Source: a virus
Taxonomy: Duplodnaviria > Heunggongvirae > Uroviricota > Caudoviricetes
IMG/VR virus record: IMGVR_UViG_2698536687_000008
Span: 1-40,799 of that record
Reading direction: 5' to 3' (one strand)
Length of the DNA stretch: 40,799 nucleotides
Shown: one piece after another, positions 1-22,306 of the stretch
How the letters are laid out: the number at the start of each line of letters is the position of its first letter
Position numbering within the stretch: the first letter of the stretch is position 1
The notes under the pieces: model-generated
What the model saw: only the letters and a program-made list of their open reading frames with translations
Told to the model about the DNA's origin: nothing
Databases searched by the model: none
Made by a program: the position numbers and the translations under genes

Positions 1-933
1 ATGGACAACGACAAAATTGATCAACACAGCGACGAAATTGAAGTTGAGAGCGAAGAAAAAGAGCGCGGCAAAAAAATAGAAATAGATGAAGACCGACTCC
101 CCTCCCGGGCGATGGCAATTCATGAGCATATCCGCCAGGATGGTGAAAAAGAGCTGGAACGCGACGCAATGGCGCTACTGTGGTCAGCCATTGCGGCGGG
201 TCTGTCGATGGGCGCTTCGTTACTGGCAAAAGGGATATTTCAAGTCGAACTGGAAGGTGTGCCGGGCAGCTTCTTGCTGGAGAATCTCGGTTATACCTTT
301 GGTTTTATTATCGTCATTATGGCCCGCCAGCAATTATTTACCGAAAATACCGTGACTGCGGTACTACCCGTCATGCAAAAACCGACAATGAGCAACGTCG
401 GCTTACTTATACGGTTATGGGGCGTCGTGCTGCTGGGTAATATTCTCGGGACAGGTATTGCGGCGTGGGCATTTGAATATATGCCTATCTTCAATGAAGA
501 AACTCGCGATGCATTTGTCAAAATCGGCATGGATGTGATGAAGAACACCCCCAGCGAGATGTTTGCCAACGCGATCATTTCCGGCTGGCTGATCGCCACT
601 ATGGTTTGGATGTTTCCTGCAGCGGGTGCGGCAAAGATTGTGGTGATTATATTGATGACCTGGCTTATTGCCCTGGGTGACACCACCCATATCGTGGTCG
701 GTTCTGTTGAAATCCTCTATCTGGTGTTTAACGGTACGCTGCACTGGAGCGATTTCATCTGGCCCTTCGCACTACCTACTTTAGCGGGGAACATCTGCGG
801 CGGCACCTTTATCTTCGCGTTAATGAGTCATGCACAGATTCGTAACGACATGAGCAATAAGCGTAAAGCAGAAGCACGCCAAAAAGCAGAACGTGCGGAA
901 AACATTAAGAAAAATTATAAAAACCCGGCATAA
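1..933 (+). CDS. yfdC: Formate/nitrite transporter family inner membrane protein YfdC
   Basis: Complete 310-aa ORF from ATG at position 1; multi-TM protein recognised from memory as E. coli YfdC, the chromosomal gene flanking argW. Confidence 0.88.
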   Translation: MDNDKIDQHSDEIEVESEEKERGKKIEIDEDRLPSRAMAIHEHIRQDGEKELERDAMALLWSAIAAGLSMGASLLAKGIFQVELEGVPGSFLLENLGYTFGFIIVIMARQQLFTENTVTAVLPVMQKPTMSNVGLLIRLWGVVLLGNILGTGIAAWAFEYMPIFNEETRDAFVKIGMDVMKNTPSEMFANAIISGWLIATMVWMFPAAGAAKIVVIILMTWLIALGDTTHIVVGSVEILYLVFNGTLHWSDFIWPFALPTLAGNICGGTFIFALMSHAQIRNDMSNKRKAEARQKAERAENIKKNYKNPA

Positions 934-968
934 ATGGCGAGGGTTTAAGCAATCGAGCGGCAGCGTAC

Positions 969-997
969 TTACCCCGCACTCCATTAGCGGGTATACT
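969..997 (+). promoter_or_regulatory. Putative sigma70 promoter for argW (-35 TTACCC, 17-bp spacer, -10 TATACT)
   Basis: -10 TATACT at 992-997 lies about 11 bp upstream of the mature tRNA 5' end; -35 is weak. Confidence 0.4.
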
Positions 998-1008
998 CAT
1001 GCCGCATT

Positions 1009-1083
1009 GTCCTCTTAGTTAAATGGATATAACGAGCCCCTCCTAAGGGCTAATTGCAGGTTCGATTCCTGCAGGGGACACCA
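1009..1083 (+). tRNA. argW: tRNA-Arg (anticodon CCU)
   Basis: 75-nt cloverleaf GTCCTCTTAGTT...GCAGGGGACACCA with anticodon loop CTCCTAA and encoded CCA end; matches argW from memory. Confidence 0.95.
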
Positions 1084-1244
1084 TTTATCAGTTCGCTCCC
1101 ATCCGTACCAGTCCGCAAAATCCCCTGAATATCAAGCCTTCCGTAGATTAGCAGTTCGTCATGGTTCGCGTCAGATCGTTGACAGCCGCACTCCATGACG
1201 GGTAAAAAGTGGATAAAATAATTTTACCCACCGGATTTTTACCC

Positions 1245-2402
1245 ATGCTCACCGTTAAGCAGATTGAAGCAGCAAAGCCGAAAGAAAAACCATATCGCCT
1301 TCTCGATGGTAATGGCCTGTACCTTTATGTCCCTGTATCCGGGAAAAAGGTATGGCAGCTTCGCTACAAGATTGACGGTAAGGAAAAAATACTGACCGTA
1401 GGAAAATATCCGCTAATGACTTTGCAGGAGGCAAGAGATAAAGCATGGACCGCGAGGAAAGACATCTCGGTTGGCATCGATCCGGTAAAAGCGAAAAAGG
1501 CTTCGTCTAACAACAATTCCTTTAGTGCGATTTACAAGGAATGGTACGAGCACAAGAAGCAAGTCTGGTCAGTAGGCTATGCAAACGAACTTGCCAAAAT
1601 GTTTGACGACGACATTTTACCCATCATCGGCGGCCTTGAAATTCAGGATATTGAGCCGATGCAACTGCTGGAAGTAATCCGCAGATTTGAAGATCGCGGT
1701 GCAATGGAGCGAGCCAACAAAGCCCGCAGAAGATGCGGAGAGGTTTTCCGTTACGCTATTGTCACCGGAAGGGCTAAATATAACCCGGCACCTGACCTTG
1801 CAGACGCCATGAAAGGATACCGCAAGAAGAACTTCCCGTTTCTTCCTGCAGACCAGATCCCGGCATTCAACAAAGCACTGGCAACATTTTCAGGAAGTAT
1901 CGTATCGCTTATTGCGACTAAAGTTTTACGCTACACCGCCCTAAGAACGAAAGAACTTCGTTCCATGCTATGGAAGAACGTCGATTTTGAAAACAGGATT
2001 ATCACCATCGACGCCAGTGTGATGAAGGGTCGAAAAATTCATGTGGTCCCGATGTCAGACCAGGTGGTTGAACTTCTTACTACGCTAAGCTCAATCACCA
2101 AACCAGTATCAGAGTTTGTTTTTGCCGGACGCAACGATAAGAAGAAGCCAATCTGCGAGAACGCGGTGCTACTTGTGATCAAACAAATCGGCTATGAAGG
2201 TCTGGAAAGCGGTCACGGATTCAGGCATGAATTCAGCACGATTATGAACGAGCACGAATGGCCTGCTGACGCTATTGAAGTGCAACTAGCACATGCCAAC
2301 GGCGGATCTGTGCGCGGTATTTACAACCATGCTCAGTATCTAGATAAGCGCAGAGAAATGATGCAATGGTGGTCGGACTGGATTGATGAAAAGGTGGAGT
2401 GA
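1245..2402 (+). CDS. intS: Tyrosine recombinase, P4-type prophage integrase
   Basis: ORF track frame opens at GTG 1209; first ATG at 1245 gives MLTVKQIEAAKPKEK..., 385 aa, recognised as KplE1/CPS-53 IntS; tRNA-adjacent position. Confidence 0.9.
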   Translation: MLTVKQIEAAKPKEKPYRLLDGNGLYLYVPVSGKKVWQLRYKIDGKEKILTVGKYPLMTLQEARDKAWTARKDISVGIDPVKAKKASSNNNSFSAIYKEWYEHKKQVWSVGYANELAKMFDDDILPIIGGLEIQDIEPMQLLEVIRRFEDRGAMERANKARRRCGEVFRYAIVTGRAKYNPAPDLADAMKGYRKKNFPFLPADQIPAFNKALATFSGSIVSLIATKVLRYTALRTKELRSMLWKNVDFENRIITIDASVMKGRKIHVVPMSDQVVELLTTLSSITKPVSEFVFAGRNDKKKPICENAVLLVIKQIGYEGLESGHGFRHEFSTIMNEHEWPADAIEVQLAHANGGSVRGIYNHAQYLDKRREMMQWWSDWIDEKVE

Positions 2403-2554
2403 TCCACCTTAACCACTATCGAAGAGCACAAAGCCTTGCAATCCAGCGCAAAGCTTTGTTTGTCTCAGTTTTGTCTTATCAACCACAGCAAGTATCGATC
2501 GTTTAAGATTTGGATGATAGACTTCATGCCTTTGATTATTAGCTGATAGAATAA

Positions 2555-2917
2555 ATGTTAAAGCTATTTGCAAAGTACACCTCGATTGGTGTGCTGAACA
2601 CACTTATACACTGGGTGGTTTTTGGTGTATGTATCTATGCCGCGCATACCAATCAGGCTCTGGCAAACTTCGCAGGTTTCGTTGTGGCTGTGAGTTTTAG
2701 CTTCTTCGCGAATGCAAGATTCACATTCAAAGCATCGACTACAACGATGCGCTACATGTTATATGTCGGGTTCATGGGAACACTGAGTGCTACTGTTGGA
2801 TGGGCTGCTGATAGATGTTCACTTCCTCCAATTGTCACTCTTGTCACCTTCTCCGCCATCAGCCTGGTGTGCGGTTTCGTCTATTCAAAGTTCATTGTCT
2901 TTAGGGATGCGAAATGA
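2555..2917 (+). CDS. gtrA: Bactoprenol-linked glucose translocase (flippase) GtrA
   Basis: 120-aa four-TM protein of the GtrA family; first gene of a gtrABS operon. Confidence 0.88.
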
Positions 2918-3840
2918 AGATATCTCTTGTAGTTCCTGTCTTCAATGAAGAAGAAGCGATACCAATTTTTTATAAAACGGTACGAGAGTTCGAAGAGTTG
3001 AAGCCATATGAAGTGGAAATTGTTTTCATAAATGACGGAAGCAAAGACTCTACGGAGTCAATTATTAATGCTCTGGCTGTTTCAGATCCCCTAGTTGTTC
3101 CGCTGTCATTTACGCGCAACTTTGGTAAAGAACCAGCATTGTTTGCAGGATTAGACCATGCAACTGGGGATGCTATAATCCCAATTGATGTTGACCTGCA
3201 AGACCCGATTGAGGTTATTCCTCATCTTATTGAAAAGTGGCAGGCAGGTGCTGATATGGTGCTTGCTAAACGATCTGACCGCTCAACGGATGGTAGACTG
3301 AAGAGGAAAACCGCCGAGTGGTTCTATAAGCTGCATAACAAAATCAGCAACCCGCAGATCGAGGAAAATGTTGGAGATTTCAGGCTAATGTCTCGCGAGG
3401 TGGTAGAAAACATTAAGCTCATGCCTGAGCGCAACCTTTTCATGAAGGGTGTTTTGAGTTGGGTTGGTGGTCGCACTGATATCGTTGATTATGCCCGCGC
3501 AGAACGTGTTGCTGGCAGTACCAAGTTCAACGGATGGAAGTTGTGGAATCTTGCTCTTGAGGGAATTACGAGCTTCTCGACTTTTCCGCTACGTATGTGG
3601 ACTTACATCGGCCTTCTCGTCGCTGGCTTAGCATTTACATATGGCGCATGGATGATTCTGGACACTCTGGCGTTTGGAAACCCGGTTAGAGGTTATCCAT
3701 CCCTGCTGGTATCGATACTTTTCTTGGGCGGGATTCAGTTGATCGGTATAGGGGTACTTGGTGAATACATCGGAAGGATTTATATCGAGGTTAAACAGCG
3801 TCCAAGATATATTTTAAAGGGTAAGAATAAAAATGATTAA
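2914..3840 (+). CDS. gtrB: Bactoprenol glucosyltransferase GtrB (GT2 family)
   Basis: 308 aa with N-terminal GT2 domain (VVPVFNEEE...DGSKD...DVDLQDP) and C-terminal TM helices; start overlaps gtrA stop. Confidence 0.9.
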
Positions 3841-5287
3841 CAACTCAAAACGTTACTCGTATGTTATTTTTATATTTATATTGCCAATTATCCTAGCAAA
3901 TCAATTTTATGTTGATGATATTGGGCGAACGACTGTTGGTTATACTAAATGGGGTGTGGACGGGAGGCCTGTAGCTGATATAGTAATGTCAGTTCTCAAT
4001 CTTAGCTCCAGAATCGTCGATCTTGCACCTCTACCAATCATTCTTGCTTCTGTGCTGCTTGCAATATCTTTTGCATGTTACAGAAAGAGGTTTCTTGATG
4101 GGGGAAAATGGAGCTTTATTATACCTCTGGCATTCATGGCGAATCCAGCTATTATATCAATGTTCTCTTATCGGTTTGATGTTTTAACTTTCAGTTTCTC
4201 CATTGCATCTGCATTTGCTCTCTTTGCAATTAAGTGCAAAAGACTGGCTCATGAATTAATAATAGGCACCGCATTTGTAGTGATAGTGCTTGGCACTTAT
4301 CAGGCAGTCATTAATGTCGTTGCGATTTTATTAATATGTGAAGTAATAGTTAACATGGCCAGATTTACTGACCCGCAGTTAATACTTAAAAGGGTTGCAT
4401 TACGTATAATGCAGGTTTTAGTAGGTGGTGTGATATACGTGAAATTCATATTACCCATAACTTTTAGCGGGCATTATTCATCTAATCACCCAAGAATATC
4501 AAATGATATATTTGGTGCACTAAAGAATAACAGCTTAAAGTATTACGATTTTGCTTCTACAAATTTTTACAGGGTTATCGGTGGTGAATTATTACTCCTG
4601 TCAGCTTTAGCTTGCATTATTATGACGGCGTTTCTGAGTTACAAATACGTTAAATGTAAAGGCCTAAACTGGAAAGTATTTAACGTTATAACTGGAGCGA
4701 TACTCGCAACAGCAATCGCTATGCCAATGACTATGGGGGCATTGCTGGTTCTCGCCAACCCATTGGGAGGAGTTCACTTATACATGTCGGTTGGAGTTTT
4801 TTATGTCCTCATGAGTACATTGCTATATTATTGCTTTAAAGAACATAGATACGTAACATCAATTACATTAATACCCGTATTGTATTCTATGATTTTAATG
4901 TATGCATACGGAAATGCTTTGAAGGCTCAGGAAAGGATAAATAAAGTAGTTCTTTCTGAAATTATGCAATCCATTCGCGACGCTGGTAGTGATAATGTTA
5001 GCATTGTGTTTACCGGCACAGCACCAAGATCCGAAGCTGTAAAAAATGCAGCATTAAACTTTCCTTTGATAAACTATTCAGTCACAGATTACTTCTGGAA
5101 CTGGTATTGGGGAAGTGCGTACATGTCATTTAATGGGATAAAGAATACATACATGCCAGCAAACAAGGCTAAAAATTACATTTCTCATAAATGTGAAGGT
5201 AACCTATCCTTTCAGGGGCAATGGCTAAATTCCTATATCAAGGATAGCGTTTTGATTGTTGATTTTGATAAAAAATCCTGCCAATAA
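3833..5287 (+). CDS. Serotype-specific O-antigen glucosyltransferase (GtrS/GtrC-type polytopic membrane protein)
   Basis: 484-aa multi-TM protein directly after gtrB; strongly AT-rich coding sequence typical of horizontally acquired gtr type-specific genes. Confidence 0.75.
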
Positions 5288-5322: not shown

Positions 5323-7482
5323 TCAATAGGTATAAATAGGTTGATCTTCTACAGGCACGCACTTCATTCTGAAGAATGAATAATAACCTGAATTACCTGT
5401 GAAAGTAAGAGTTAATGTGCTACCAGTGAATGTTGCTGTGGGTGCTGGTATTAATGTGGTCCCAGCCTTCGAGCGTCCCTGGTAGCCAGTAACAGTTGTT
5501 GTTGTTCCTACCAACACTGTAAATCTTAAATCCTGCTGTACAGTGGATGCGGTGTTTCTCATCAAAAGCCTAACGCTATACTCACCTCCATCTGCAATAT
5601 TTCCAATCTGGATACTAAAGCTCACTGTACCATTTGCAGTTACAGTAGGAGTTCGCATTGTATACTGGTCTAGCAATCCAACAAATTGAACTGTAAAAAG
5701 CCTCTGCGCTGAAAGTGTAGTCGATAAGCTATCTGTGATAGGGTGTTGGTTTTTTATGACAATATTGTAGGAGCCATATCCTAAATCTTTAGTAAGATTC
5801 TGGAATTTTGTTACCACTCTTGGATTTTCAATTATCACTCGTGATCTTTCAGATGGGAGGTATTCTCCTGAAGTAGTGTCAAAAACATTCCCTGACTGCA
5901 CCGCCAGATCTTTAATGTCGTGATTAAAGTATGTCCCTGTTGAATAAAACTCTGAGGCAACACCATGCACAAAAACACGATGCCCTGTCTCGCTTGCAGG
6001 TACTCCAATCCATTCTGTATACCCACCAAACATATTAACATTGCCGCAATAAAAAAGAGCAAACTCTCTGTTGTACCCTTCTATTGTTACGCCATACAGG
6101 TCTATATCGAAGCTATTGTAAGCATACATAAATGTAGTTACATATGCGATATTCGGTCTATTAGAATCACTTATGCTTCGATGGAACCATTGCTGAGTAC
6201 CATCAGCAAAAAGGAAAGAAGTGTTACCTGTAAAATAACCAGCATCTATGCGTATAGCGGTGCATTGATACACAAGAAATGTTGCGTATTTAGCACCAAA
6301 AGCAAAGCAATCGCGGATAGAGATATCCCATGAACCATTCAACCAGTACCCAACCTTGCAATTATACACCGCGACTTTATTAAGTCTGGAGGCTGGCACG
6401 CGCCAAATTCGAACACCGCATTGTGTATCTGCAAGACCGATAAATACTATGTTTTCCAGGGTAGCCCCGTAATACCCATCACTTTCAGTACGACCGTATA
6501 ACATTTCGTCTGTTGTCGTATACCGCTTAGAGTTATCCTTTAGCCATGGAGCTGTGTCAAACATTATCTTTGAGGTTTCCATAGTTGGCATAGCCACAAT
6601 GCAGGCGCATCCAGCCCGGGAAAAACGAAATCCTGGACTGCCGCCGGTTCCCAAAATTCGCACATTAGGTGCACCATAGATGGTGTCATTGATGTAGAGT
6701 AGCCCCGCTGGAATTACCACATCACCCCCCTGATGGCTATCCATATCCTTATCTAAGTATGGGTTTAAGTAGGATATCGCGGCGTTAAGCATAGGTGCGC
6801 TATCAAAAGTGTTGTCGTTAATTTTAGCACCAAACTCCAGAGGGGATACTGTGCGATTAAGATACGCGGCTACAAACTCTCTCTTCCAGCGTCCGGTTCC
6901 GACATTGCCTGTTGGGTTAATGGTATAGCCTCCGTCATCAGTATCAGTGCTGGTTGAATTCCAGCGGAAATATCCTCCGCCATAACCAGCTCCAAGGTGA
7001 TAAGAATCAACATAGACTCTTCCATTTTCCTTAACTGATGAGTATGCAGTAAATGCTCGTAGATCTGCTATTGATGAGAATGTACCAAATAATGCATAAG
7101 AATCAGGCGCAGACATCTTGGCAAGCCATTCTGCAGAAAACTGATCCGGGTCATACTTCAGCACATTAGGAAAATAGAACTGCTGCACACCGTATGCATC
7201 ATAAACAGCCATCGAATGGCCTTGCACAGTTACGAACTTGGCAATCTGTCCGTTATATACCGGGTAACCAGCCGCATTAATGATGATTGGTTGCGAAACA
7301 GGAACGTGAGAACCGTCTTCGTTCTCCACATAAACCTGAATCTGGTTTTCAGGATTTACCGGGTCAGTGTCAATTTTACCGATATAAATTTTGCCATTGG
7401 CTACGGCTTTAAAAGAATGAGCCATGGTGAAGAGTTGCGAAGGCATGCTGACCACAACATTGGCATTTATTGAATCTGTCAT
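5323..7482 (-). CDS. Tailspike protein (P22 gp9-like head-binding domain plus divergent beta-helix receptor-binding/O-antigen-cleaving domain)
   Basis: Start ATG at 7482 gives [18 protein letters not shown]...; first ~110 aa match the P22/Sf6/HK620 tailspike N-terminus from memory; rest is divergent. Confidence 0.9.
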
Positions 7483-7569
7483 TTTAATTTCTCTATATGT
7501 TAAGCAAGCAATATTCATTGCTAGCATGTTTTTTGTATAATGAGTGCACTTTATTTAAAGGTGGTTAAC

Positions 7570-8078
7570 ATGAACTGGAACGAAGTATTCGTATTAAAAG
7601 ACGATGGACTCCTGTACTGGAGTGACCAATATCTTTCAAGACCCAAAATGTTCAATATCTCTAAAGAAAAGCCTGCAGGACATATATTCAAGGACAAGAA
7701 CAGGAAAACCTCTTATATAATTATTAGGTATCAAGATAAAATATACGCCGCCCATAGGATAATATGGGAAATGTTTTATGGTGAAATCCCTTCCGGAATG
7801 CAAATTGACCATAAAGATGGTAACGGGTTAAATAATTCAATAGACAACCTGCGTCTAGTTAGTCTCGGTGAAAACCTAAAAACAAATCTAAATACACAAA
7901 CAATACATCTGGGTGTGCTGGGGTTTCATGGCATAAGACCCATAAAAAGTGGGTGGCATATATTAGCGACGCAGGGAAGCGCATTAATCTCGGATACTTT
8001 AAGAGTCTCGATGATGCAATTGCTGTAAGGCGTGAGGCTGAAAAGACCTATGGTTATCATGAGAATCATGGTAGGTGA
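7570..8078 (+). pseudogene. HNH-AP2 homing endonuclease, reading frame broken in an A-rich tract
   Basis: Frame A (7570-~7880) carries the HNH motif IDHKDGNGLNNSIDNLRLV; the AP2 domain GVSWHKTHKKWVAYISDAGKRINLGYFKSLDDAIAVRREAEKTYGYHENHGR continues in the -1 frame to a stop at 8076-8078. Confidence 0.6.
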
Positions 8079-8209
8079 TATCTGACATTTCATTGCTCCA
8101 GACGAATGATATGATGCAACCATGATGTGATTGCATACCGAAATGGTACTATTGAGTATTTATCCAGTAGGTTACGATGCCATTCCACCCAACTGGTGAG
8201 GCATCAAGG

Positions 8210-8470
8210 ATGTACAGCAAATACGACGAGGCGAAGTTTCACTTGAGACTTCCGCATGAACTCCACGCGAAAATTAAGCAGCGTGCGAAGATGAATAACA
8301 GGTCGCTGAACTCAGAGATAATTGCAGCGATTGAAGAATCATTGGCTAAACAAAGCTCTGCACCAGTTTACATTGACGATGCAGAGCGTATGGCAGAACA
8401 ACAATCTGATATGGTTAAGAAAATTGTCTTTGATACGCTCAAAGAGATATATAAAAAAGACAGCAGTTAA
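8210..8470 (+). CDS. Mnt-like ribbon-helix-helix repressor (Arc/MetJ superfamily)
   Basis: 86 aa from ATG 8210; KFHLRLPHELHAKIKQRAKMNNRSLNSEII RHH motif and C-terminal DAERMAEQQSDMVKKIVFDTLKEIYKK resembling P22 Mnt. Confidence 0.75.
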   Translation: MYSKYDEAKFHLRLPHELHAKIKQRAKMNNRSLNSEIIAAIEESLAKQSSAPVYIDDAERMAEQQSDMVKKIVFDTLKEIYKKDSS

Positions 8471-8490
8471 CCATCAGTTACGGAGGATTT

Positions 8491-8568
8491 ATGCAAAGAG
8501 ATATGCTGAATATTGCGTTCTACATATTTGGTTTTTGCACGTTCCTGGTGTTTGCGAAGCTATTCTGA
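8491..8568 (+). CDS. Hypothetical 25-aa hydrophobic peptide
   Basis: ATG preceded by RBS ACGGAGG; encodes MQRDMLNIAFYIFGFCTFLVFAKLF; very short, unverified. Confidence 0.25.
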   Translation: MQRDMLNIAFYIFGFCTFLVFAKLF

Positions 8569-10557
8569 CAACGCATCAGACTTGGCACCCTGAGTAATGG
8601 CGTTAATGGCCTTTTGCGCCTGCTGCATGGCTTTCTCAAACGCTGTTGATCCGCGTGGGGTATTTGCCATTCGGAGCATTGCATTTCTGAATGGCTCGCT
8701 CTCATAGGCGCGAGTAAGAAGTCCGTAGCTTACCGCTGCGCCAGTTGTCGCCGGGTTCATTGCCGTCCCATACCCAATAATGAACGGGATGGTTTGCTGC
8801 CCTGTTGGTGTTGTTACTGCTGCTTTTGCAGCCTGTTGCGTGGATTGCAGGTAGTTTTTCAATCCTTTCAGATAAGCAGCATCCTGACCTTTAAATGTGA
8901 TGCCAGTCTGGTTTTGCAGGATGTTAAGCTGTCGAAGGAACTGGTCAGGGGAACCACCTGATTTCTCCATCGCCTTTCCAATGATGCCATTGCGCATTTG
9001 CGCCCTGCCAACACGACCAACTGAGTTATACAGTGTCTTAATTTCAGATTTGTTCTTGCTGAATAGCATGTTATTGACAACTTCCGGCGTCAGATCGCCT
9101 TTCATGAGAACATTCTTCAGCCTGGTATTCTTGAGTTTCGCCGCTTCGTCAGCGTAGACGGCATTGGCCTGCTGATATTTACGGAGAGTATCGTTGCCAA
9201 GATTCTGACCAATGGCACCATTGATATCGTCGGTCATCGCCTTGTAAACGCGCTGAATGGCGGCATCGGAACGGTTTGGTAACACTGGTCGCTCACCCTT
9301 CACGTCCATTCTGAACTGGCTGCGCAGATCGCTTAATTGCTTCAAGTCCAGATTTACCGGACCATCAGGGCCAGCATTGCGAACAAGCTCATCACGATAT
9401 GACTGAAGTTTTGAAATAGTCTCGTTATCAGCGACCTTACCAAGCTTCTGCAGATTAGATATCTCGGTATCAATCTGCTGAATTGCTCGCGCAGGCAGGA
9501 TATTGACTCCCGCCATTGCATTCTGAACCTGCTCAAGACGGTTCCCTGCAGCGCGACGAATTCCTGATGTTTTCGCTTTAAGGCTGTCAATAATAACCGC
9601 TGGATCATACTCACCGAATTTATCAGCAAATCTCTGCACCAACTGGCTTCTCGCTTCCTGTTGCGTTGCTCTCATTCCGCTTGTGCCAGCCAGAGGGATA
9701 TTTTCTGCTGTAGTCTGCGCCATTTTTCCGACGCGGGAAGTGGGTTGTAACAGGTCTGTGGTGTGCAGAGGAACTCCTTCACGCTCTGCAAATCTGATAG
9801 CCTGCTGCGCTTCTGGCGCGATAGCACCACGAACGCCACGATAAGCAGCACCTAATCCACGTCCAGCGGCGTTAATAGCACCGCCAGCAAGTACACCAAC
9901 GCCTAAATCGGTGGCGAGTGCTTCCGCATCATCTTTCGCACTATTTGCAGCAAGTGATCCAACTGCGTTTTCTGCTAGAAGGCGAGTTGCCCCCTGAGCA
10001 ATTCGACCAGCAAGTGTTGGTGCCTGCGCTGCCGCTCTCTCAACGCCAGCAGGAGTGAGGTAAGGCAATGCTTCAGCAAATACCCTTCCCTCTGTCGTTT
10101 GTGGAGTCAGCGCGCCTTGCTGAAGGCCAAAGTCCTGCTCTAATCCCTGCGTTGTTACTCGTGGCGCTGGTTGATATGTACCATCGCCAATGCCGAGTTT
10201 ACCGCCAGCCCAAGCCGCCGCGCTTGTTACAGCATCGGCAACTGATGCAGGTATGTTTGCCACGTTCACGCCAGCCTGCACCAGTCCGCGACCAGTCTCT
10301 TTTACTGCTTCGCCAAGATCAGACATAAATCCACTTTGCTGTGGTTGTTGCTGTGCAACTGGTTGCTGTGTCTCCACTTTCTGCACAGATGGCAATGGAT
10401 AGGCAGCATAGAAAGCTTGCTTAGCCTGCTCTGCATTTTCTCCGGCTTGCGGGGCCACGACTTCATTGAAGTATTGCTCCTGAGCCTGCGCTTTTTGTTC
10501 TGGTGCTAACGCCTGATACTGTGGAGAGGCGATAACATCTTTCCATGCTTTAGCCAT
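8560..10557 (-). CDS. Ejection (injection) protein, P22 gp16-like
   Basis: 665-aa Ala/Gln-rich protein in the gp16 position of P22 gene order (last of the 7-20-16 ejection set). Confidence 0.8.
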   Translation of the reverse strand: MAKAWKDVIASPQYQALAPEQKAQAQEQYFNEVVAPQAGENAEQAKQAFYAAYPLPSVQKVETQQPVAQQQPQQSGFMSDLGEAVKETGRGLVQAGVNVANIPASVADAVTSAAAWAGGKLGIGDGTYQPAPRVTTQGLEQDFGLQQGALTPQTTEGRVFAEALPYLTPAGVERAAAQAPTLAGRIAQGATRLLAENAVGSLAANSAKDDAEALATDLGVGVLAGGAINAAGRGLGAAYRGVRGAIAPEAQQAIRFAEREGVPLHTTDLLQPTSRVGKMAQTTAENIPLAGTSGMRATQQEARSQLVQRFADKFGEYDPAVIIDSLKAKTSGIRRAAGNRLEQVQNAMAGVNILPARAIQQIDTEISNLQKLGKVADNETISKLQSYRDELVRNAGPDGPVNLDLKQLSDLRSQFRMDVKGERPVLPNRSDAAIQRVYKAMTDDINGAIGQNLGNDTLRKYQQANAVYADEAAKLKNTRLKNVLMKGDLTPEVVNNMLFSKNKSEIKTLYNSVGRVGRAQMRNGIIGKAMEKSGGSPDQFLRQLNILQNQTGITFKGQDAAYLKGLKNYLQSTQQAAKAAVTTPTGQQTIPFIIGYGTAMNPATTGAAVSYGLLTRAYESEPFRNAMLRMANTPRGSTAFEKAMQQAQKAINAITQGAKSDALSE

Positions 10558-11852
10558 TAATCACCCCATAGTGAAGAAAAATTACTGCCAGTAGTAGGTT
10601 GTTGCGCTGGCGTATTCTGTACTGGCTCCTGATAATCAAACTGTTTTTTAACAGTGCTCAACTTGCTTTCAAGCTGATTTCTAATCTTTCCGATAGAGTC
10701 ACGAAAAGCCTTTTCACTCATTTTGGGGCTTAGGGCACCAACCGCATCGGATAATTTTTTACCCTCAGCATCTGAAAGAGCCCCCATCCCCTTAAGGGAC
10801 TGCACCATAGGAAGGAAAGTTTGAGCTTTAAAGGTGTCGAGCCTTGCTTCAAAGTTAGCCGCATCAGAGCCAGGAACTGTTGGAAACGCTGAGCGAATTC
10901 CTACTGCTTTTGAAAGGCCGGGGCTTTGCTCTATCTCGTTGAGAGAATCAAGCGCTGTGCTGAACGTATCAACTGCACCCTGAGCGGCGGCCTGCCTGTC
11001 AGCGCGGGCTATGTCAGCCTTTTGCCGAACATCTGCCTGTTTCTGTTTTAGCTCTTCAAGCTTTAACTGATTGCTTTCTCTGGCTATCTGTCTGTCCAGA
11101 GCCTTTTCTTGTAATTCTGCTCTTTGTATTTCGCGGGAAAGAGCAGCATTCTGTGCGCTGATGTTCTGTCCACGTATCTGGATGTCCTGACCACGCGCTG
11201 TTAGTGCTTCTCCAGCCTGATTGCTGCGGATTGTCTCTGCCAGCCTGCCTCGGTCAATTTCACGACCAGCCATCTTGTCCTGAACATTGAAGTAATCAAT
11301 CGGACCAAGAGCAGCCATTCCAAGGTGATCAACAAACTCACCAAATCCCGAAGGGTTCTGCTGATACATCCGAGCAACGCTGTTGGGGTCAACACCGACG
11401 CGAGTCAGTTCCTTGGCGTTGTTTTGCAGCCATGATTGCATTGCTTCTGGAGACGATGACGCAAGGCGTGCGCCAGCCGCTAAGGTGCCGATAGAATTAC
11501 GCTGATCTTCATCAATGAATCCCATGCCTTTACGAACGGATTCAATCTGGTCTGGATATTGAGTAGCCAACTGACGCAAAGCACCGCGATCACCAGACGC
11601 ATAAGCATTAGCGTATGCCTGCTGAAATTCTTTCTGCCGCTGAGCCTGCTTTTCCTGCTGAAACACCCCCGCAATACCTGAAAGGCCTTGCAAAGCAGTC
11701 AGCCCAACATTGTTAGCGCCTGAACGCTCAATATCATTGTTCTGCCTGATAAGCTGAAGCGTATTGCCGATGTCATTTACGCTCGGAGCGTTTGAGTTGA
11801 CGCCGCCGATACCAGCCAACAATCCGCCATTTGATCCTTGCCAAGTAGCCAT
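10557..11852 (-). CDS. Ejection protein, P22 gp20-like
   Basis: 431 aa; position and composition consistent with P22 gp20. Confidence 0.8.
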   Translation of the reverse strand: MATWQGSNGGLLAGIGGVNSNAPSVNDIGNTLQLIRQNNDIERSGANNVGLTALQGLSGIAGVFQQEKQAQRQKEFQQAYANAYASGDRGALRQLATQYPDQIESVRKGMGFIDEDQRNSIGTLAAGARLASSSPEAMQSWLQNNAKELTRVGVDPNSVARMYQQNPSGFGEFVDHLGMAALGPIDYFNVQDKMAGREIDRGRLAETIRSNQAGEALTARGQDIQIRGQNISAQNAALSREIQRAELQEKALDRQIARESNQLKLEELKQKQADVRQKADIARADRQAAAQGAVDTFSTALDSLNEIEQSPGLSKAVGIRSAFPTVPGSDAANFEARLDTFKAQTFLPMVQSLKGMGALSDAEGKKLSDAVGALSPKMSEKAFRDSIGKIRNQLESKLSTVKKQFDYQEPVQNTPAQQPTTGSNFSSLWGD

Positions 11853-11861
11853 GATTACCCC

Positions 11862-12554
11862 TTAAAACAACGAGCCAAGCAATCCGATACCAGCGCCAAT
11901 GCCAGCGCCCCAAGGTGTTGATGTTCCCAAAAGGCTGGCAAGACCTGCACCGGCAATCGCACCAGACGTTCCGCCACTAATTGCTGTCTGAAGACTTGAT
12001 GGTTTGTTGGCATTAGCAGCGGCAAGAGCTGCGCTTTGCTGTGCAATGCTGCTCATGTTGTTGGCGTACGTCTGCCCGGCGTTTGCCTGACCTTGCAGCG
12101 CACCAAGCCCAACGTTTGCCAGATTGTTGTAATTGCTCATCTGGTTTGATAACCACGACTGACCGAGAGTCGGAGCAATCGTAGCCAGTTGATTGCTTGT
12201 AGCTGTCGAACCAAGTCCGCCAGTCGCCTCCGCAGCAGCAAGACTCTGGTAACGAGCCTGACCTGCAAGGTCTTTATACTGCTGAGAATTGTAATACTGA
12301 TTAAGTGCCTGCCCCTGACCTTCTAAACTGGAAAGATTCTGAAGCTGGTTAACATACTGCTCCGCAAGCGGCGTGAACGTAGCAAGGTTTTTCATGATCG
12401 TCTGCCACTGCTGATTTTGCAGGTCTGCGGCATACTTCTGAGCTTCTGCTGCATACTTTGCGCTTTTATCAGAGCTGCCACCTTTCCCGCCTTTTTCAGG
12501 GCAATAAGGTTCCTCGCCGCGCAGTTTTCTGCCCAGCTTAAATGCATATAACAT
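11862..12554 (-). CDS. Ejection protein, P22 gp7-like
   Basis: 230 aa (P22 gp7 is 229 aa); Gly/Ala-rich C-terminus; syntenic. Confidence 0.8.
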   Translation of the reverse strand: MLYAFKLGRKLRGEEPYCPEKGGKGGSSDKSAKYAAEAQKYAADLQNQQWQTIMKNLATFTPLAEQYVNQLQNLSSLEGQGQALNQYYNSQQYKDLAGQARYQSLAAAEATGGLGSTATSNQLATIAPTLGQSWLSNQMSNYNNLANVGLGALQGQANAGQTYANNMSSIAQQSAALAAANANKPSSLQTAISGGTSGAIAGAGLASLLGTSTPWGAGIGAGIGLLGSLF

Positions 12555-12556
12555 GG

Positions 12557-13012
12557 CTATCTCCCGTGATTCAGGAAGTCGATTAGTTCTTCGCGTGTGG
12601 CGCTGTAAAAAGTCACGTCATCCACGCCTTTGAAGTATTTCTTGATGGTTCCTACACGCTTAAGGCCAATCATCGCGCAATACATCTGACCGTGGCGGAA
12701 TTTGCGTGCAGCGAACGATGTGACGCACTGAACGGTGGTGTTAGTCAGAATGTATCGCCAGAACGCCAGACCGATTTCCTTGCTGAATCCGCGAATCTCT
12801 GGCAGGTACATGGCGTGGCAATCGAATGTCAGCGGCTGAATCTCCTGATAGTAAACAATGCCGCCGAACTGCCCGTGCACGTTCACCTCAAAGTAACGGC
12901 ATTCAGGCTTGTAGTCGTATCCATCACCGTTGTTGCTCCCGGCAATAATGTCAGGGTGATTTCCGACTGCTTCGATCAGGTCGATGTTTCGCGTTGGTTT
13001 GAATGTAATCAT
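12557..13012 (-). CDS. Head assembly/ejection-associated protein, P22 gp14-like
   Basis: 151-aa ORF between the tail needle and gp7 homologues, matching P22 gene order 26-14-7. Confidence 0.7.
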   Translation of the reverse strand: MITFKPTRNIDLIEAVGNHPDIIAGSNNGDGYDYKPECRYFEVNVHGQFGGIVYYQEIQPLTFDCHAMYLPEIRGFSKEIGLAFWRYILTNTTVQCVTSFAARKFRHGQMYCAMIGLKRVGTIKKYFKGVDDVTFYSATREELIDFLNHGR

Positions 13013-13713
13013 CAGTCAATCAACCCATGAGTCCGTAATGCATCTTCCAGAGCTTTGATACGCTGCCGCGCCTGCTGCAATCCTGTAGCCATAGCCGACA
13101 CCTCAGACCGTGTGTATGTGGCACTTACCGTGTATGTCTGGTTAGCGTTGAATGAGCCGCGAAGAGCCGTACCTGTAGCCGCTGTCCACCCTGTCTGACG
13201 AGCACCAATAACCTTGGTGCCGCCGACCGAATAGGATGTTGTTACATTGAGGGGAGATGCCAGCGATTGTGTTGCAGTGGCTGTTTTCGATACATAGTCG
13301 TCCTGTAATGCAGAAATGTTGCTCTCAGCAGTCGTAACCCGGCCATCAAGAGCGCTGACGTCAGCCTGTAAGGTGACTATTTCTCCTTCAGCCGTGGTTA
13401 GTCTGACATCCAGCGCTGCAATTGCCGCAGTATTCGCAGCAATACGGATTTCATGGTCATCTACTTCAATGCGGAGCTGACGAATTCTTTCTTCATGATC
13501 GACCAGAATCACATCCTGCTCATCGTTCCTGACCTGTGCATCATAAGCGCCCTGTCCGGCCTCGTTGGCCTTGTTAGCCACGTTACCAACATCAGTGCCC
13601 TGTGCGATAACGTAAAGCAGATACGACTGCGAGAAGATATTGCGTGGAAGGATTGATGTATCGAGCCGCGTCGCCTGAACAATAACAGGTGTGTTGAGAT
13701 TCGAATCCGCCAT
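13012..13713 (-). CDS. Tail needle protein, P22 gp26-like
   Basis: 233 aa, [25 protein letters not shown]...ends HGLID; near-colinear with P22 gp26 from memory. Confidence 0.9.
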
Positions 13714-15131
13714 TACTCAATCCTTATCTGGCAGCCAGACAGAGTGACAGGTGACTTCGTGATAACGCGCAATTTGAAACCGACATTTTTCCTGATGCGC
13801 CCTACTCGCTTCCACAAAACGCGTTTGTCGTAAACGAACGGTTCATTCTGCTCAATCATCTGCTCACGCCCGTAATTGATTCCGTCAGTGGTTGCAGAGA
13901 GAAAAAGGCGGTCGGCGTACTGCGCAACGCCAGTTGAAGATTCAACTTCAAGGTCGAAAACTCTGGCGTTATCTGCTTTGAACAACGGAGTAAACAGCAG
14001 GTGTTCCTGTTGCTTGTCGTACTGGCTGCTGATATCGAACTGCAATTTCCCGGTCACGGACTCCAGCTTATCGCCGCACGTTATCTGATTGCCTTCATAA
14101 ATGAAGTCGATAGCGCGGTACACATCGTCATACAGGCCTGTTTTCAACACACACCATTGCGGACCATTGGCGCTTGAAGATGCGTCGTACACGAGAACAT
14201 GGCGTGGAAGGTGGATAATCAGCAACTCATGAGCATCAAAGCGCAACGATTCCATCACGCCATCAGCCAGTTCATCAGCAGTGTAGGAGCGGAGGATTTT
14301 CTCAATGCTCGCGCTGGCAATTGGTGACACCTGACCAGAGCCGATGATATACACAGACGGCGCACCCGTTGCCGGATTGCTGATGAACGCATACGAATCA
14401 GCAAACGGCGTTTTGCAGTAAGTCCCGGCAATGCCTTTCTGCACCATCAGCGATGGCTGTGCGACATACAAAGCAGCACCAACGGTGGTTGCACCAGTCA
14501 GGGAGAAATATTCAATCGTTGATGAACCAAAGCATACGATGAAGTCTCGCCATGTTCCGATGCCGATGATGCCGTCAGGCTGCGATTCTGCGCGATATTG
14601 TGCGCTGTAGCGGTCAGGGTGTGTTTCGTCTTCAAGGTCAGTGATAAACCATGAATCAGTACCGTCTTTTGACCACGCATAACGCCCACGTAAGCGCGTA
14701 ATGTCACGAACCGAACCTAGCTCATACTGAGTGAATCCGCTATCTGTAGGCCAGTTTGAGACGATTTTAACCGCGCCATCATAGCGGTATTCGACCAGTT
14801 GACCATTAACGCCTACCGCCTGTGATGTCCGCCCATGCGCCATTGATACGCGACCACTTCCGGCAACATCACCGACTTCGCTTTCGCCTTTGTAGAGCTT
14901 GCCGCCACACACACGATAGACAGCATTCTGCGCCATGTTGTACTCGACGCCTCGAGATACACCGTTCACATCAGAACGTTTGGCAATGCCCGGGAATGAG
15001 CGAAGATATCCGCTGCTGTTCAGGATTTCTTTGGGTGTAGCCAACATATTCGCTGGCAGATAGTCGATATAGTCGGCGTTTCGGAAATCTTTGCCGACAC
15101 CTTTCATAAGCGGAAGTTGCTGAATCGGCAT
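13713..15131 (-). CDS. Tail accessory factor, P22 gp10-like
   Basis: 472 aa, same length as P22 gp10, syntenic between gp4 and gp26. Confidence 0.85.
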
Positions 15132-15608
15132 TATTCGCTCCCGTTATCGCAAGGATCCTTTCGGTGGAAGTAATTCCAACCGTTCCACTTCGCCAACTGG
15201 TTACCGCTACCAACAGGCATGCGGTTTGGATAACCGGACTTACATTTAGCGGCTTTTGCTCTGTCCATTGCAGACAGTTTGACGAGTCGCTCTTTCCCGT
15301 ATCTGGCAGTAGTTATAAGTTTTGCAGAAGCTTCCAGCGCATAATCTGGAGCAATGCGGCAGGCAAGGTTGAAAATGACGGCATTGATAGCGTTATTTGA
15401 TAAACCGTGCTCATCTCCCGGATCCGGAGCGACATCTGCATCAGCAAAAATGTAGCCAACGTTGATACCAGGTGACGCATCACCGCCAAGCCATTCAGCC
15501 ATCATCATTTCAAGGTCGTTGACGCCGTCTTCCATAGACTGCGGTTCGACATCGGTTAACGTGGCATTTGATGCCACACCGAGCTTACGTAATGCCGCAA
15601 GAACTAAA

Positions 15609-15631
<23 letters not shown>
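15131..15631 (-). CDS. Head completion/tail accessory protein, P22 gp4-like
   Basis: From Met at 15631: [33 protein letters not shown]... matches the P22 gp4 N-terminus; the ORF-track extension (SQSQ repeats) is upstream non-coding frame. Confidence 0.85.
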
Positions 15632-15875
<244 letters not shown>

Positions 15876-15919
15876 GCTTGTCTCCAGATAAAAAAGGGAG
15901 CCGAAGCTCCCTCTGGTTA

Positions 15920-17215
15920 TCACGCGGTCTGGTTAGGCAGACCAACACCAATTGCCTCTGGTCGTACAGCACATGCTGAATACCACACAGCAATACGGCA
16001 CTTACCAGACAGAGTGTTGATATCACCCTGCGTTGCGAAGATGCCGTTAACACCAATACCAGGAATGCTGAAGGAAGACGTTTTCATGCCAGCAAACAGT
16101 TCATGGGTTACCGGGATCGGCTGAGACAGCAGACGGATTGAGTCATCAGCCCAGAACACGTTAGCGGTGGTTGTTGCCACGTTCAGAACGTTTACCGGAG
16201 TGGTATCAGCAAGAGAGGTGTTTACGTTAGCGTAAGCCTTCTCTTCTTTTGTCAGTGACGCGTCATCAAGCGCAATCGGCTTCGGCGTGATTTCGATGTG
16301 AGTACCATCGATCACACGGGTGATTGAGAAAGTAGCATCATCAGTCAGCACGTTCTTCGCCATCTGAGACAGGAATTTCACACCAGTGAAGCTGATTTTG
16401 TCGCCGCGCTTAAATCCGGTGGTGGAGGATACGGTCACCGTTGCAACACGGTTGTCGACGTTCTCTTTGTTACCATCGGTATCAAGAGTGTATGCCTGCG
16501 GCTTAAACTTCTGCGCACCAGAAACAGTTACACCAGTAGCGGTTGACTTGGTAACTGCCGGAAGTTTCGGTGAGCGAAGAATTTCATCAAAGCCAGCAAT
16601 CTGACGCTGAATAGTACCGTTGCGATACGCTTCTTCAGGAACGCGCCCGAAGATGTCACCATCTACAAGATTGCGGCCTGCTTTGCGGTAATCGTCAGGG
16701 TTCAGGAAGTAACTGATACCCATGTCGCGGTTGAGTTCGCGGGAGAACATCAGTCGCTCTGCATCAGACACAAAATCCCAGCCAGACAGGCCAGTAGATG
16801 GACCAATTGCGCGGGTATCGTGAACAACAAGCGAGCCCATTTCAGTTGCCTGTTTGGCAATCGCTGACTCAATGTTATTCGCCAGTTTTTTGGCGGATGC
16901 CTGGATGCGGCGACGGTAAGAACGCTCATCACGCAGGTCATCTGCACGAAGCTCGAAGAAATCGTTATCCGGATCGCCCATGTTGCATTTCACGGACAGC
17001 TCCAGAATCCCGGTTGCGTTGCCAGTTAAATCCCAGCCAGTCTGAGTTGGCGCTTCCTGCTCAACAGGCATCCACACGGTGTTGCTTGAACGTTGCATGG
17101 ATTCTGCCGGAGGGGTGTATTTTGTCACTTTGGACGCCATTGGCGTCAGGTTCTGGACGGTTTCGATGATTTCATCCAGAGCATACGTGACCAGTTGACC
17201 TTCATTTAATGCCAT
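15920..17215 (-). CDS. Major capsid (coat) protein, P22 gp5-like (HK97 fold)
   Basis: 431 aa, [20 protein letters not shown]...GVGLPNQTA, colinear with P22 coat protein from memory. Confidence 0.95.
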
Positions 17216-18126
17216 TATCGAATTCCTTTATTCAGTTGCGCCTTGAGCTTGCGGTACGTCTCTACATCCCCTTTGTTTGCTGCCGCCTCCATCTGCTTTT
17301 CAATCGCAGAGATATTTGCAGCAACAGCGTGTCCCTGAATGGGCTCATCAGGTAACGGGGCTTCTGAAACAGGCTTTGCTCGAGGCTTGAGAGTTAAACG
17401 TTCTGACAGTCGAGTGAGTTCAATCAGCGCGGATTGCCCGTCCATCGCCAGCAACTGGCGTGTTTTCTCAGGATTAGCACCAAGGTGATACATGAGAGCA
17501 GCGGATTTCTCCGGGAAGAGGCGCATGATGTCGGCACCGACTGCTGGCGGCACCAGTTGCATGAATGCATCCTCTTTCTCCTGATAGTCAGGGATATTGA
17601 GCTTTTCCGCTGCGTCGTAGTGCTTACGGGCTGCCTCGACGTATTGCGCTGATTGCTGGGTGAACTCCTGAGTTTTGCGACCCTGCTCGGCGACAGCCTG
17701 GCTTCGTGCGTCCATAGCCTTGATCTGCCATTCACTATTTGCCTGCTGGAAGGCAGCCAGTGCGCGGCTCTGGTCATAGTCGTACTTAGCCAGTGCATCT
17801 TCGGAAAGATAATCGTTAGGGTCTGGTTGTTTTGGTAACTCAGGGTTCACCCGCAGGTGCTCCGGCAACTCTCCACGCTTAACCGCTTCCATCTGTTGCT
17901 CAAGCTCACGCTGGCGTTTGCGTTCGATGCGGCGACGGGCAAATTCAGCATTAGTTGCCGGGTCTTGTTTTGGTTTCTCATCGTCTTTCAGGACAATCTC
18001 GAAGCCTTCTTCCTGACCTGCGTTGTCGTTGGCATTATCGACAACTAAGCCATCAGCAGATGCCGCTGCATGATTGCCGGGCAGGGTTAATTCTTCAGAA
18101 GCCTGAATGTCGGTGGTTTGGTCCAT
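17215..18126 (-). CDS. Scaffolding protein, P22 gp8-like
   Basis: 303 aa (same as P22 gp8), acidic helical protein immediately upstream of coat. Confidence 0.9.
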
Positions 18127-18139
18127 GATTAACTCTCTC

Positions 18140-20305
18140 TTATTGAGGTGTCTCGGCTACTCCGCCGGAGGGGATTTGAACTTGACGCATAAGATTCGCG
18201 AAATCCATGCGTTGTGAATGAGTCTGGTCTGCATCTTTAAGAAGCAGCTCAGCGTTAGCACGAGCATCTTTGCTGCGCTGTTGCTGGAATTGACCTACGA
18301 GCTTGAGGTACTCACGCAGTTCTGCCTGCTTGTCGAGGTCCATATTGTTGAAGATTTCTGCAATCTTCGCGGCGTTGAGTTGGTTTTGGGCTTCAACCTT
18401 GGCGGCTTCAACCTGAATCTGCGCCTGTTGGTTCTCTGCCTTGAGCAATTCAGCCTGACCTTGCAGAAGGATACCCTGCGCCTGAATTTGCTCTGCTGAT
18501 GGCTGCTGCGGCTGTTGTTGTGCCTGCTGCACCATCTCCATCTCTTCAGGTGTTTCTGGTTTCTTCAGCCCCATCATCACCAGTTGCTTGTTCGCGTACT
18601 CTCGCATCATCTCGACGCCTTTACCGTCAAGCAACGTGAAGTATTGCAGCATCAGCATCTGGAACTCTGGAGTACCTTGCGGAACCTTGGTTAGCAACTC
18701 CTGAATCTCTGCGCGATTCTGTTCCTTCATGCTCTGGAAGGATGGCCCAACGTCTGTATAGCACTCATAGCGACCGCGAATGTCGTTGAGTGTGACCACA
18801 TTACCGGACTGGTAATCTACAACTTGCGCGTAGAGTTGAACGTCTTTCTCGCTACCATCTTCAAGTGTCAGCGTTACATGACGAGGAACGTCATAAATAT
18901 CGTTGACCATTGAGGCATAAATCTCGCCATCACGTCGCATTGCGGTAGCCAGGTTATCCTGAAACACGTATGTCTCAAGGTCTGCCCGCATGTTCAGTTG
19001 ATTGACGGTATCGAAAGCTACCTGACCATTTGCCGCCTGCGCATCCACGCCAAGACTAGCCACCTCTTTCACTGCGTTGGTGGCAGCCTCAAGCATGTAA
19101 GCGTTGGCCTGCGGTACTTCAGGGTTTTCCATGTAGGAGATTGGACCAATCGGCAGGTCGTTACCGTTTTCATCGGTCTTGTTCTGCAGATAGTACGGAT
19201 AGTCGTCATTTCCACCGTACATGTATTCGTAGCCTTCGATTTGCTCAGGTAAGAAGGTCGGTTTCTTCTTCGGTGAGCGAGCAACAATATCGGCGTTGAA
19301 TGACATGATCATGTTACGAAGGCGTTGACCGTCTTTCGTCAGCCTTACCACTCCTTCGTAGCACTCCTTGTCACCAGCGAATGACCATTCGCCATACACT
19401 GGAACGATTGGGATATGCTCTCCAGCTATCTTCTCGCGGTCTTTCAGTATCTGCGTGCAGGTGATGATCGACTTATACACACGCCGACGCTTGACCTTAC
19501 GCTCTGCTACCTTAATGAATCCACGATTAGCCAGGTCGTCGATGACGTCTTTGATATCCTGCTGGTAATAGCTGACCGGCTCACCTGTCAGCGGGTCGCG
19601 GTAGATGAAGACCTTCTCCTTCTTCTCTTCTACCTCGTAATACTCAGCGACGTAGACGACATCATTCGATACCCACGGAAACAGCCATGTATCGTTCGGA
19701 TTCTGGAAAGATGGCAAGGTGTCCGGATCAATACCGTAATCCTCTGCGAACTCTTTCCAGCCATTGCGTGACAAAGCGTTAATCACCGTGCAGTGCTTAG
19801 CGTCGCTCTTATCCATCTGCTTGCTGTTGGCGTCCCATATGACGTGTGAGCAGGCTTCATGGATTGGCAGGCGTCGGATTACCTGATTGTTGCTTGTTGG
19901 GTCGTTGTCTTCGTACTGGGTGACCAGACGCCATGCACCAACGCCGGACTCTATCTGCTCACGAACGCCAACGTTAACGGCAATCTTTGCCGTGTTATGG
20001 CGCATATCAGTACGATACATTCCCATCAACACATCGGCAGCATCAGGATTAGCGCCGTCTTTGGGTCGGAAGAGAACGTCGATAGGGTTCCGGCGCATCT
20101 CTGCGACCAGTTTCCTGACCACCGGGCGAACAACATCGAATTGTCCGCGATATTGCAGGGTAGTGTAGTTTGATAGCCAGTCATCCCATTGCGACACTCG
20201 GCTAAAATACAGGTCATTTGTCGCCTCGGTTCTGGCTTCATCGCTCGCCATCCAGTCCGCGTCAAACTTACACAGAATGGAATTGAGTCTGTTTTCGTCG
20301 GCCAT
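18140..20305 (-). CDS. Portal protein, P22 gp1-like
   Basis: 721 aa; between terminase and scaffold; Gln-rich C-terminal barrel region. Confidence 0.9.
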
Positions 20306-21805: not shown

Positions 21806-22271
21806 GGTTGAATAGCTCCTTGATACGAGAGCGTCGCTTATCGCGATCTCCCTTATCAGGTGTCACGTCTTCAACTTGCGACTGCTCTTTGAGGCCCAAA
21901 TCACGGGCGATGATGTTAGCGTTGAGAAGGTCAGCGGCTGCGCCAGAGAATTTCTGGTCGTAGATGACCTGCTCTGCTCGCGTAACGACTTCAGATAAAT
22001 CTTCTCGCAGGCGATATGTGCGCCATGTTTCAAGCGTCACATCAATGAACAGAGTGAGACCGGTAATGGTCATCGCTCGCATCTTGGCGATAGGCTCTTG
22101 TATCACTTCCCCCTGATACGAGAACGCCTTCATCTCCCATAGCGGGTTAGCTTCCACCCACTCGAAGTATTCACAACAAGCAGCCCACAGCGCCTCAGGC
22201 GATTCGAATTTAGGATTTCGCCCATGACTACTGCGGGCCTCCCAAAATCGGTTGCCCTTTGGTGCTGCCAT
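21783..22271 (-). CDS. Terminase small subunit, P22 gp3-like
   Basis: From [29 protein letters not shown]..., 162 aa; overlaps TerL start as in P22. Confidence 0.85.
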
Positions 22272-22306
22272 ATTCATCTCACTTAGTTGTTATTTCAGGT
22301 TGAGCA

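Follow-up and report, generated by a model that had tools for sequence, protein, structure and literature searches.

A putative HNH-AP2 homing endonuclease gene at the tailspike start of a P22-like Escherichia coli prophage, probably broken by the recent loss of a single adenine

According to the account of Magnani et al. (2004; PMC520932) as cited in PMC2248197 and PMC10448857, HNH-AP2 homing endonucleases form an established family with members in phages, cyanobacteria and ciliates. In vibriophage ICP1 (gp115/gp116), an HNH ORF is parted from an AP2 ORF by a frameshift (PMC10448857), and a series of degenerating HNN-AP2 genes has been described in Xanthomonas phages (PMC2248197). The gene that is the focus of this study lies in a 40,799-nt stretch of a Caudoviricetes record (IMGVR_UViG_2698536687_000008), hereafter called the window, and its sequence marks it as a putative, free-standing HNH(HNN)-AP2 homing endonuclease gene. 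With the known family, including the 'IPA-HNH' genes of ICP1, it has in common an N-terminal HNH/HNN nuclease, a C-terminal AP2 domain and a free-standing position in phage genomes, and its lesion is the same as that of ICP1 gp115/gp116. Unlike the ICP1 genes, its lineage resides in P22-like prophages at a single fixed position, where the tailspike gene has its 5' end, and the window gene strongly matches the Pfam model HNH_3, for which the ICP1 genes are too divergent.

Several other systems resemble the window gene in part. I-HmuI, the nicking endonuclease of phage SPO1, shares the DH...N...N beta-beta-alpha-metal motif and the beta-rich region preceding it, but is encoded in an intron and carries a C-terminal DNA-binding module that is not AP2; the two proteins arrange their domains differently, which limits the overall TM-score to about 0.38. 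Free-standing HNH genes of T1-like, Seszw-like and T5-like phages (PHROG 99) have the same length and architecture at 46-49% identity over the full length, and relatives at this level of identity are found in more than 1,500 phage records, T1-like and Seszw-like phages included. These genes, however, are located in virulent/siphovirus genomes at other loci, and none of them is an orthologue. Furthermore, A-rich, shift-prone sequences at the junction of two frames are familiar from IS1 (A_AAA_AAC) and dnaX (A_AAA_AAG). In contrast to these, the two-frame arrangement discussed here is confined to the window and three short contigs (L010-L012), and it offers only a tetramer, no stimulator and an unconserved tract.

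The window represents a P22-like prophage beside yfdC and an IntS-type integrase at the argW site. This placement follows from the left end of the window (positions 1-5287), where the host gene yfdC precedes the IntS-type integrase and an O-antigen glucosylation cassette of the gtrA/gtrB/gtrC-like kind; at the corresponding site, a related prophage (strain Z1323HEC0300) has a tRNA-Arg. A CTCTGG hexamer repeat at 15688-15725, in a small ORF between the coat and gp4 genes, is 18 nt (three units) longer in the window than in the Z1323HEC0300 prophage. The truncated protein of the window is known to RefSeq as WP_432804850.1, 152 aa in length, encoded on LOOY01000011.1 (936 kb) of assembly GCA_001576035.1, and the 18,028 bases that this locus and the window have in common are identical. 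The LOOY01 record stems from E. coli G27, a strain from Belgium (PMC6030559). RefSeq lists the protein under the ordinary name 'HNH endonuclease signature motif containing protein' and does not mark it as a pseudogene with a frameshift. The identical 152-aa sequence is listed for two samples.

The split gene comprises the following features.

7557-7564, plus strand: Shine-Dalgarno-like AAAGGTGG, read from the sequence, 5 nt upstream of the ATG at 7570
7570-8028, plus strand: truncated ORF, 152 aa plus stop, identical to RefSeq WP_432804850.1
7872-8078, plus strand: open stretch of the -1 frame, encoding a linker and an AP2-fold DNA-binding domain, ending at the TGA at 8076-8078
7878-7882, plus strand: A5 run at which the frame breaks; the 22 other E. 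coli-type copies examined all have A6

Translation from the ATG at 7570 yields MNWNE...IDHKDGNGLNNSIDNLRLVSLGENLK, followed by 48 out-of-frame residues up to the TAA at 8026-8028, and the product retains the N-terminal region together with the complete HNH_3 (HNN-type) motif. A start at 7570 rather than at 7540 is supported by the Shine-Dalgarno-like AAAGGTGG and by RefSeq relatives whose annotated start is this ATG. The -1 frame, one base to the left, is closed by a TGA at 7869-7871, is open from 7872 and encodes KPKNKSKYTNNTSGCAGVSWHKTHKKWVAYISDAGKRINLGYFKSLDDAIAVRREAEKTYGYHENHGR. An independent protein consisting of the AP2 part only was considered and rejected, as the first start codon of this frame is a GTG at 7953, within the domain itself. 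The preliminary description had assigned the HNH and AP2 parts to different frames that meet near an A-rich stretch at 7870-7895, and had proposed that a -1 shift would repair the continuous protein. Translation and the Pfam matches in each frame confirm the first point; the coordinates and motif strings proved exact, and the break can now be refined to the A5 run at 7878-7882 (context CCTAAAAACAAA), where relatives carry A6.

When the window is aligned with four E. coli prophage copies (98.3-99.7% identity), each annotated as a CDS of 510 nt and 169 aa, the sole gap within the gene lies in this tract, which reads CCT-AAAAA-CAAA in the window and A6 in all four. In intact alleles, A6 encodes Lys-Asn (CTA AAA AAC) and is the longest homopolymer of the gene, every other run being 5 bases or shorter. 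Addition of one A to the window gives a 169-aa protein that is identical over its whole length (100%) to P0009 (ADR26389.1 and others), a protein found on 321 contigs, which bears out the proposed repair and argues that the HNH and AP2 halves do not adjoin in two frames by chance. The DNA of the repaired gene matches that of strain Tig228 except for one synonymous change.

Comparison with intact homologues, also suggested in the preliminary description, showed an unsplit gene of 169-170 aa in 26 of the 26 other copies examined at the DNA level (L010-L012 apart). These copies come from 15 complete E. coli genomes, six IMG/VR contigs, one metagenome contig, three Salmonella contigs and one Enterobacter genome. 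A 69-base probe across the tract matched every complete E. coli genome with the gene (15 of 15), each time over 70 bases, and this match length means that all 15 have A6. The six IMG/VR contigs and the metagenome contig, searched with a pattern allowing 4-8 bases in the tract, likewise have A6 and an intact ORF of 169 aa, so that A6 is found in 22 of 22 E. coli-type copies. Among the 26 sequences matching the pattern, with the window counted once together with its own contig (L005), the tract has six bases in 22 and five in four, namely the window, L010, L011 and L012; no allele of 4, 7 or 8 A's was found among these matches. Ratios of dN/dS among intact copies are 0.03-0.12 in both halves of the gene, the AP2 part included. 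The intact gene is, judging from these ratios, functional and under purifying selection, and the lesion would therefore be very recent.

The domains on both sides of the break can be assigned with different clarity. HNH_3 (PF13392) matches the repaired protein with 72.9 bits and the truncated ORF with 73.3 bits (cut-off 24.8), and PHROG 99 (HNH endonuclease) matches the repaired protein over its full length (E 3e-59). Among solved structures, the best match by sequence is I-HmuI (PDB 1U3E; E 2e-5), aligned over DH...N...N, with IDHKDG...NNSIDNLR...GEN pairing with DHKDG...NNLSTNLR...KIN of I-HmuI. The D, the H and three N are invariant in an alignment of 48 family sequences, and all lie upstream of the frame break. 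In I-HmuI, we take these residues to be the catalytic Asp-His, the structural Asn and the metal-binding Asn of the beta-beta-alpha-metal motif, and in the alignment the frame breaks three residues past the Asn that pairs with the metal-binding one.

The AP2 domain (PF00847) reaches 23.9-25.5 bits in the second frame (E 2e-5 to 5e-5), which is under the gathering score of 33.3, and a precomputed match to PF00847 is present on about a quarter of the listed homologues. An AF2 model of P0010, an intact relative of 98% identity, was built on 48 homologues (pLDDT 92) and has, in its C-terminal part, a three-stranded sheet (strands at 129-132, 137-144 and 147-154) and a helix at 157-171. With this model, Foldseek ranked I-HmuI first and returned almost exclusively AP2 domains at ranks 2-8 (7ET5, 7WQ5, 1GCC and 3IGM, i.e., TEM1, WRINKLED1, AtERF1 and PfAP2). 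The probabilities were 0.84-1.00, with E-values of only 0.05-0.1, as is expected for a domain of 50 residues, and 1GCC superimposes at an rmsd of 1.2 A over 48 columns. The 'textbook' AP2 domain of the preliminary description is hence upheld by the predicted structure at the level of fold and family only, and its bit scores fall short of textbook strength.

Taken together, we consider it probable that the window gene carries a real, very recent loss-of-function mutation at its main slippage hot spot. One A would have been lost from the A6 run encoding Lys-Asn (CTA AAA AAC) in the prophage copy of E. coli G27, so that translation would leave the conserved frame three residues past the last catalytic Asn of the beta-beta-alpha-metal motif. 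The resulting product of 152 aa would keep the nuclease motif without the AP2 DNA-binding domain, should no longer recognise the homing site and is presumably inactive. Such a loss would be the first step of the usual degeneration of homing endonuclease genes after fixation in a host.

A sequencing or assembly error is the alternative to be taken most seriously, although we judge it the less likely of the two: the strain would truly have A6 and an ordinary, intact HNH-AP2 gene, of which the contig dropped one A. The lesion is indeed the loss of one base from the gene's longest homopolymer, the kind of mistake that typically remains in assemblies from long reads, 454 or Ion Torrent; a contig of 936 kb in a draft genome may be compatible with long-read sequencing. 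Moreover, the rest of the gene is pristine, with a single synonymous change relative to Tig228 and, after repair, a protein identical to a common one, and this absence of further downstream decay fits an error equally well as a very recent mutation. The assembly, however, does not appear to be noisy, since an alignment of about 27.9 kb with the related Z1323HEC0300 prophage shows agreement in homopolymer lengths and the other large genes of the window, those of the virion among them, are all intact. Within this alignment there is no other 1-bp difference in homopolymer length; at 8074-22274 (14.2 kb, 98.2% identity), none of the 25 runs of 5-6 bases differs. The gaps that do occur in the 27.9 kb are the 18 nt due to repeat number, pairs that compensate each other in diverged stretches and a single base between genes.

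Further public copies of the gene bear on this question in both directions. The same change from A6 to A5 occurs on two other haplotypes, P0006 (L010 and L011) and P0007 (L012). P0006 is an EC1515-like allele; along 1.3 kb and about 1 kb, respectively, its two contigs show no second indel, from which A5 alleles appear to exist in nature. P0007, in turn, is a PK8568-like allele whose contig looks noisy: besides the A5 change, it has three indels within about 1.07 kb, of which two fall in homopolymer runs. P0005 and P0008 have extra frameshifts and come from visibly noisy assemblies. Because some frameshifted public copies (L012, P0005, P0008) stem from such assemblies, the recurrence of A5 could partly be recurrent error. 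On balance, the lesion in the window is probably real rather than an assembly error.

A regulatory role of the tract was also considered, in which A6 and A5 would toggle the endonuclease as a contingency switch, or off alleles would be selected repeatedly for their benefit to lysogens. The identical change on three different haplotypes and the length of the upstream T run, which also varies (T4-T6), would be in line with this. A tract of six bases is, however, short by the standard of contingency loci. Alleles of the off type are scarce, a handful compared with hundreds of contigs that encode the intact protein; mutation bias by itself would lead one to expect repeated hits in the gene's longest homopolymer; and the pattern allowing 4-8 bases matched no A7 or A4 allele. 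The long tract and the frequent length variants among close relatives that characterize phase-variable homopolymers were not found here, and we regard this reading as highly improbable. If the A6/A5 difference were nevertheless a functional switch, which is similarly far-fetched, loss of the A would silence a potentially harmful, site-specific nuclease in lysogens, while rare reversion or background -1 slippage, with the exact wild-type protein as its product, would keep the ability to home. Selection, in addition to mutation bias, would then account for the recurrence of A5 on three haplotypes, and the element could home when the prophage meets an empty phage genome.

Slippage-dependent expression, by which a ribosome (-1, tRNA-Lys on A_AAA) or RNA polymerase would slip to make the full-length protein, is hardly credible: A-rich motifs are classic bacterial shift sites and a -1 P-site slip of tRNA-Lys from AAA 7879-7881 to AAA 7878-7880 would restore the exact wild-type ENLKNKSKY, but the split is unconserved (all 26 other copies examined are single ORFs), the zero-frame motif is only the tetramer A_AA.A and no X_XXZ_ZZN heptamer, the 90 nt downstream of the tract fold no more stably than shuffles (z = -0.01) and contain no stimulatory structure, and conservation does not extend to the A run, which in the Enterobacter orthologue reads CTT AAA AAT. 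A GGTGA is located upstream of the tract at a distance of only 6 nt, which is not the spacing that stimulates -1 shifts, and five A's are too few for efficient transcriptional slippage. Trace amounts of full-length protein at background level are possible, since the tRNA-Lys slip would regenerate the exact wild-type sequence, and nothing suggests that they are used. In E. coli, tetramers without a stimulator shift at 0.147% on average, compared with a background of 0.112% (PMC4066793). Of the three causes offered in the preliminary description, mutational decay and sequencing error thus both stand as possible, with mutation favoured, whereas slippage-dependent expression falls with the unsplit relatives and the missing heptamer and stimulator.

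The intact alleles themselves contain an in-frame A_AAA_AAC, an IS1-type slippery motif (equivalent to window positions 7876-7883; e.g., L001:1897-1904). A -1 shift on this heptamer would lead to Q-I-stop and yield an HNH-only protein. The heptamer is kept in Salmonella (CTA AAA AAT; A_AAA_AAT) but not in Enterobacter (CTT AAA AAT), and its role as a programmed source of an HNH-only isoform was dismissed as unsupported.

The gene forms part of a cassette that interrupts the tailspike gene, with junctions defined to the base and the features below.

5323-7482, minus strand: tailspike gene with P22 head-binding domain, its first six codons from the cassette
7465-8073, no strand assigned: cassette of about 609 bp, GC 36.5%, absent from HNH-less P22-like prophages and phages
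7465-7482, minus strand: replacement tailspike start ATG ACA GAT TCA ATA AAT (MTDSIN), joined in frame to GCC AAT GTT GTG
8074-8088, minus strand: ghost of the ancestral tailspike start, ATGTCAGATATCACC = MSDIT, left by the insertion
8210-8470, plus strand: Arc/Mnt-family repressor gene, the only immI-type gene present and the right-hand neighbour of the cassette

The cassette consists of the new tailspike start, an 87-bp spacer and the HNH-AP2 gene, and it separates codons 5 and 6 of the tailspike gene. In relatives that lack the HNH gene (the E. coli W prophage and phage Sf101), the two flanks are contiguous (GGAGCAATGAAATGTCAGATATCACCGCAAATGTTGTGG) and the tailspike begins ATG TCA GAT ATC ACC GCA AAT GTT GTG. 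The complement of the ghost start supplies the TGA stop of the endonuclease, and the ribosome-binding site of the HNH-less tailspike gene corresponds to window positions 8089-8098. From the ghost start, behind this old ribosome-binding site, an antisense ORF of 29 codons (MSDITYHDSHDNHRSFQPHALQQLHHRDS) persists.

Some additional sequence elements lie on either side of the gene. A T run at 7529-7534 in the 87-bp spacer varies from T4 to T6 among close relatives and adjoins a TATAAT at 7536-7541, and its length could change promoter spacing. A scan for consensus promoters and terminators upstream of the gene gave three sites compared with 4.4 expected, with nothing usable. Between the ghost start and the Arc/Mnt-family gene, the inverted repeat ATGCAA-N11-TTGCAT (8114-8136) is a possible candidate for the operator of the Mnt-like repressor.

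Concerning the origin of the gene, the preliminary description had characterized it as an AT-rich, recent selfish insertion between the tailspike and an immI-like region. Its composition (38.7% GC vs. 47.4% in the window) and its position, with the tailspike gene at 5323-7482 on the left and the Arc/Mnt-family gene at 8210-8470 on the right, agree with this account. Its selfish nature and presence/absence polymorphism also stand: the cassette is found in 15 of 236 E. coli genomes sharing the right flank, i.e., it is present or absent at one precise site in otherwise homologous genomes. The attribute 'recent', in contrast, has to be withdrawn. In Salmonella (75% amino-acid identity) and Enterobacter ludwigii (83%), orthologues are found at the corresponding position next to the tailspike head-binding domain, and synonymous divergence is very high or saturated, with dS about 1.4 to Salmonella and not computable to Enterobacter. 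Given these same-site orthologues and the saturated divergence, the element is best described as an old, site-specific resident with presence/absence polymorphism rather than a recent arrival.

The same junction has also received a second gene of this kind. In E. coli VE-T9 (L006:1550-2008), an HNH-AP2 gene of 35% identity is located at the same right junction (…AGGTGATATCTGACAT) and brings a different replacement for the tailspike 5' end; the copy of this second gene in E. coli EC06 (L007:1550-2008) contains an internal stop and is annotated as a pseudogene. The right junction of the tailspike insertion looks like a hot spot for the HNH-AP2 gene family. The first tailspike codons encode MTDSIN in HNH-plus alleles and MSDIT in HNH-less alleles, an alteration that would be expected if the recognition site spans the junction and that hints at disruption of the target site. 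The intact protein would presumably cleave the 5' junctions of HNH-less tailspike genes.

Outside the prophages and contigs described above, a megablast of the locus against 50,697 phage records (INPHARED) returned only the 107-bp right flank, in Sf101 and IME10, and none of these records carries the gene at the DNA level. In the literature searched, no P22-like phage was found to carry an HNH gene where its tailspike gene starts, the only related case being epsilon34, with an HNH fusion at a different locus.

For annotation, the consequence is that the entry WP_432804850.1 probably ought to carry a note marking it as a frameshifted version of the HNH-AP2 endonuclease of 169 aa. Beyond this, the split gene would have little significance of its own: whether a mutation or a sequencing slip, it would represent either the ordinary, already described decay route of homing endonuclease genes, and thereby one more snapshot of their cycle of gain and decay, or a slip in the data. 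The locus as a whole is a tidy natural example of homing endonuclease genes at the mosaic boundaries of phage genomes, and its anatomy could guide a simple homing assay in P22-like phages.
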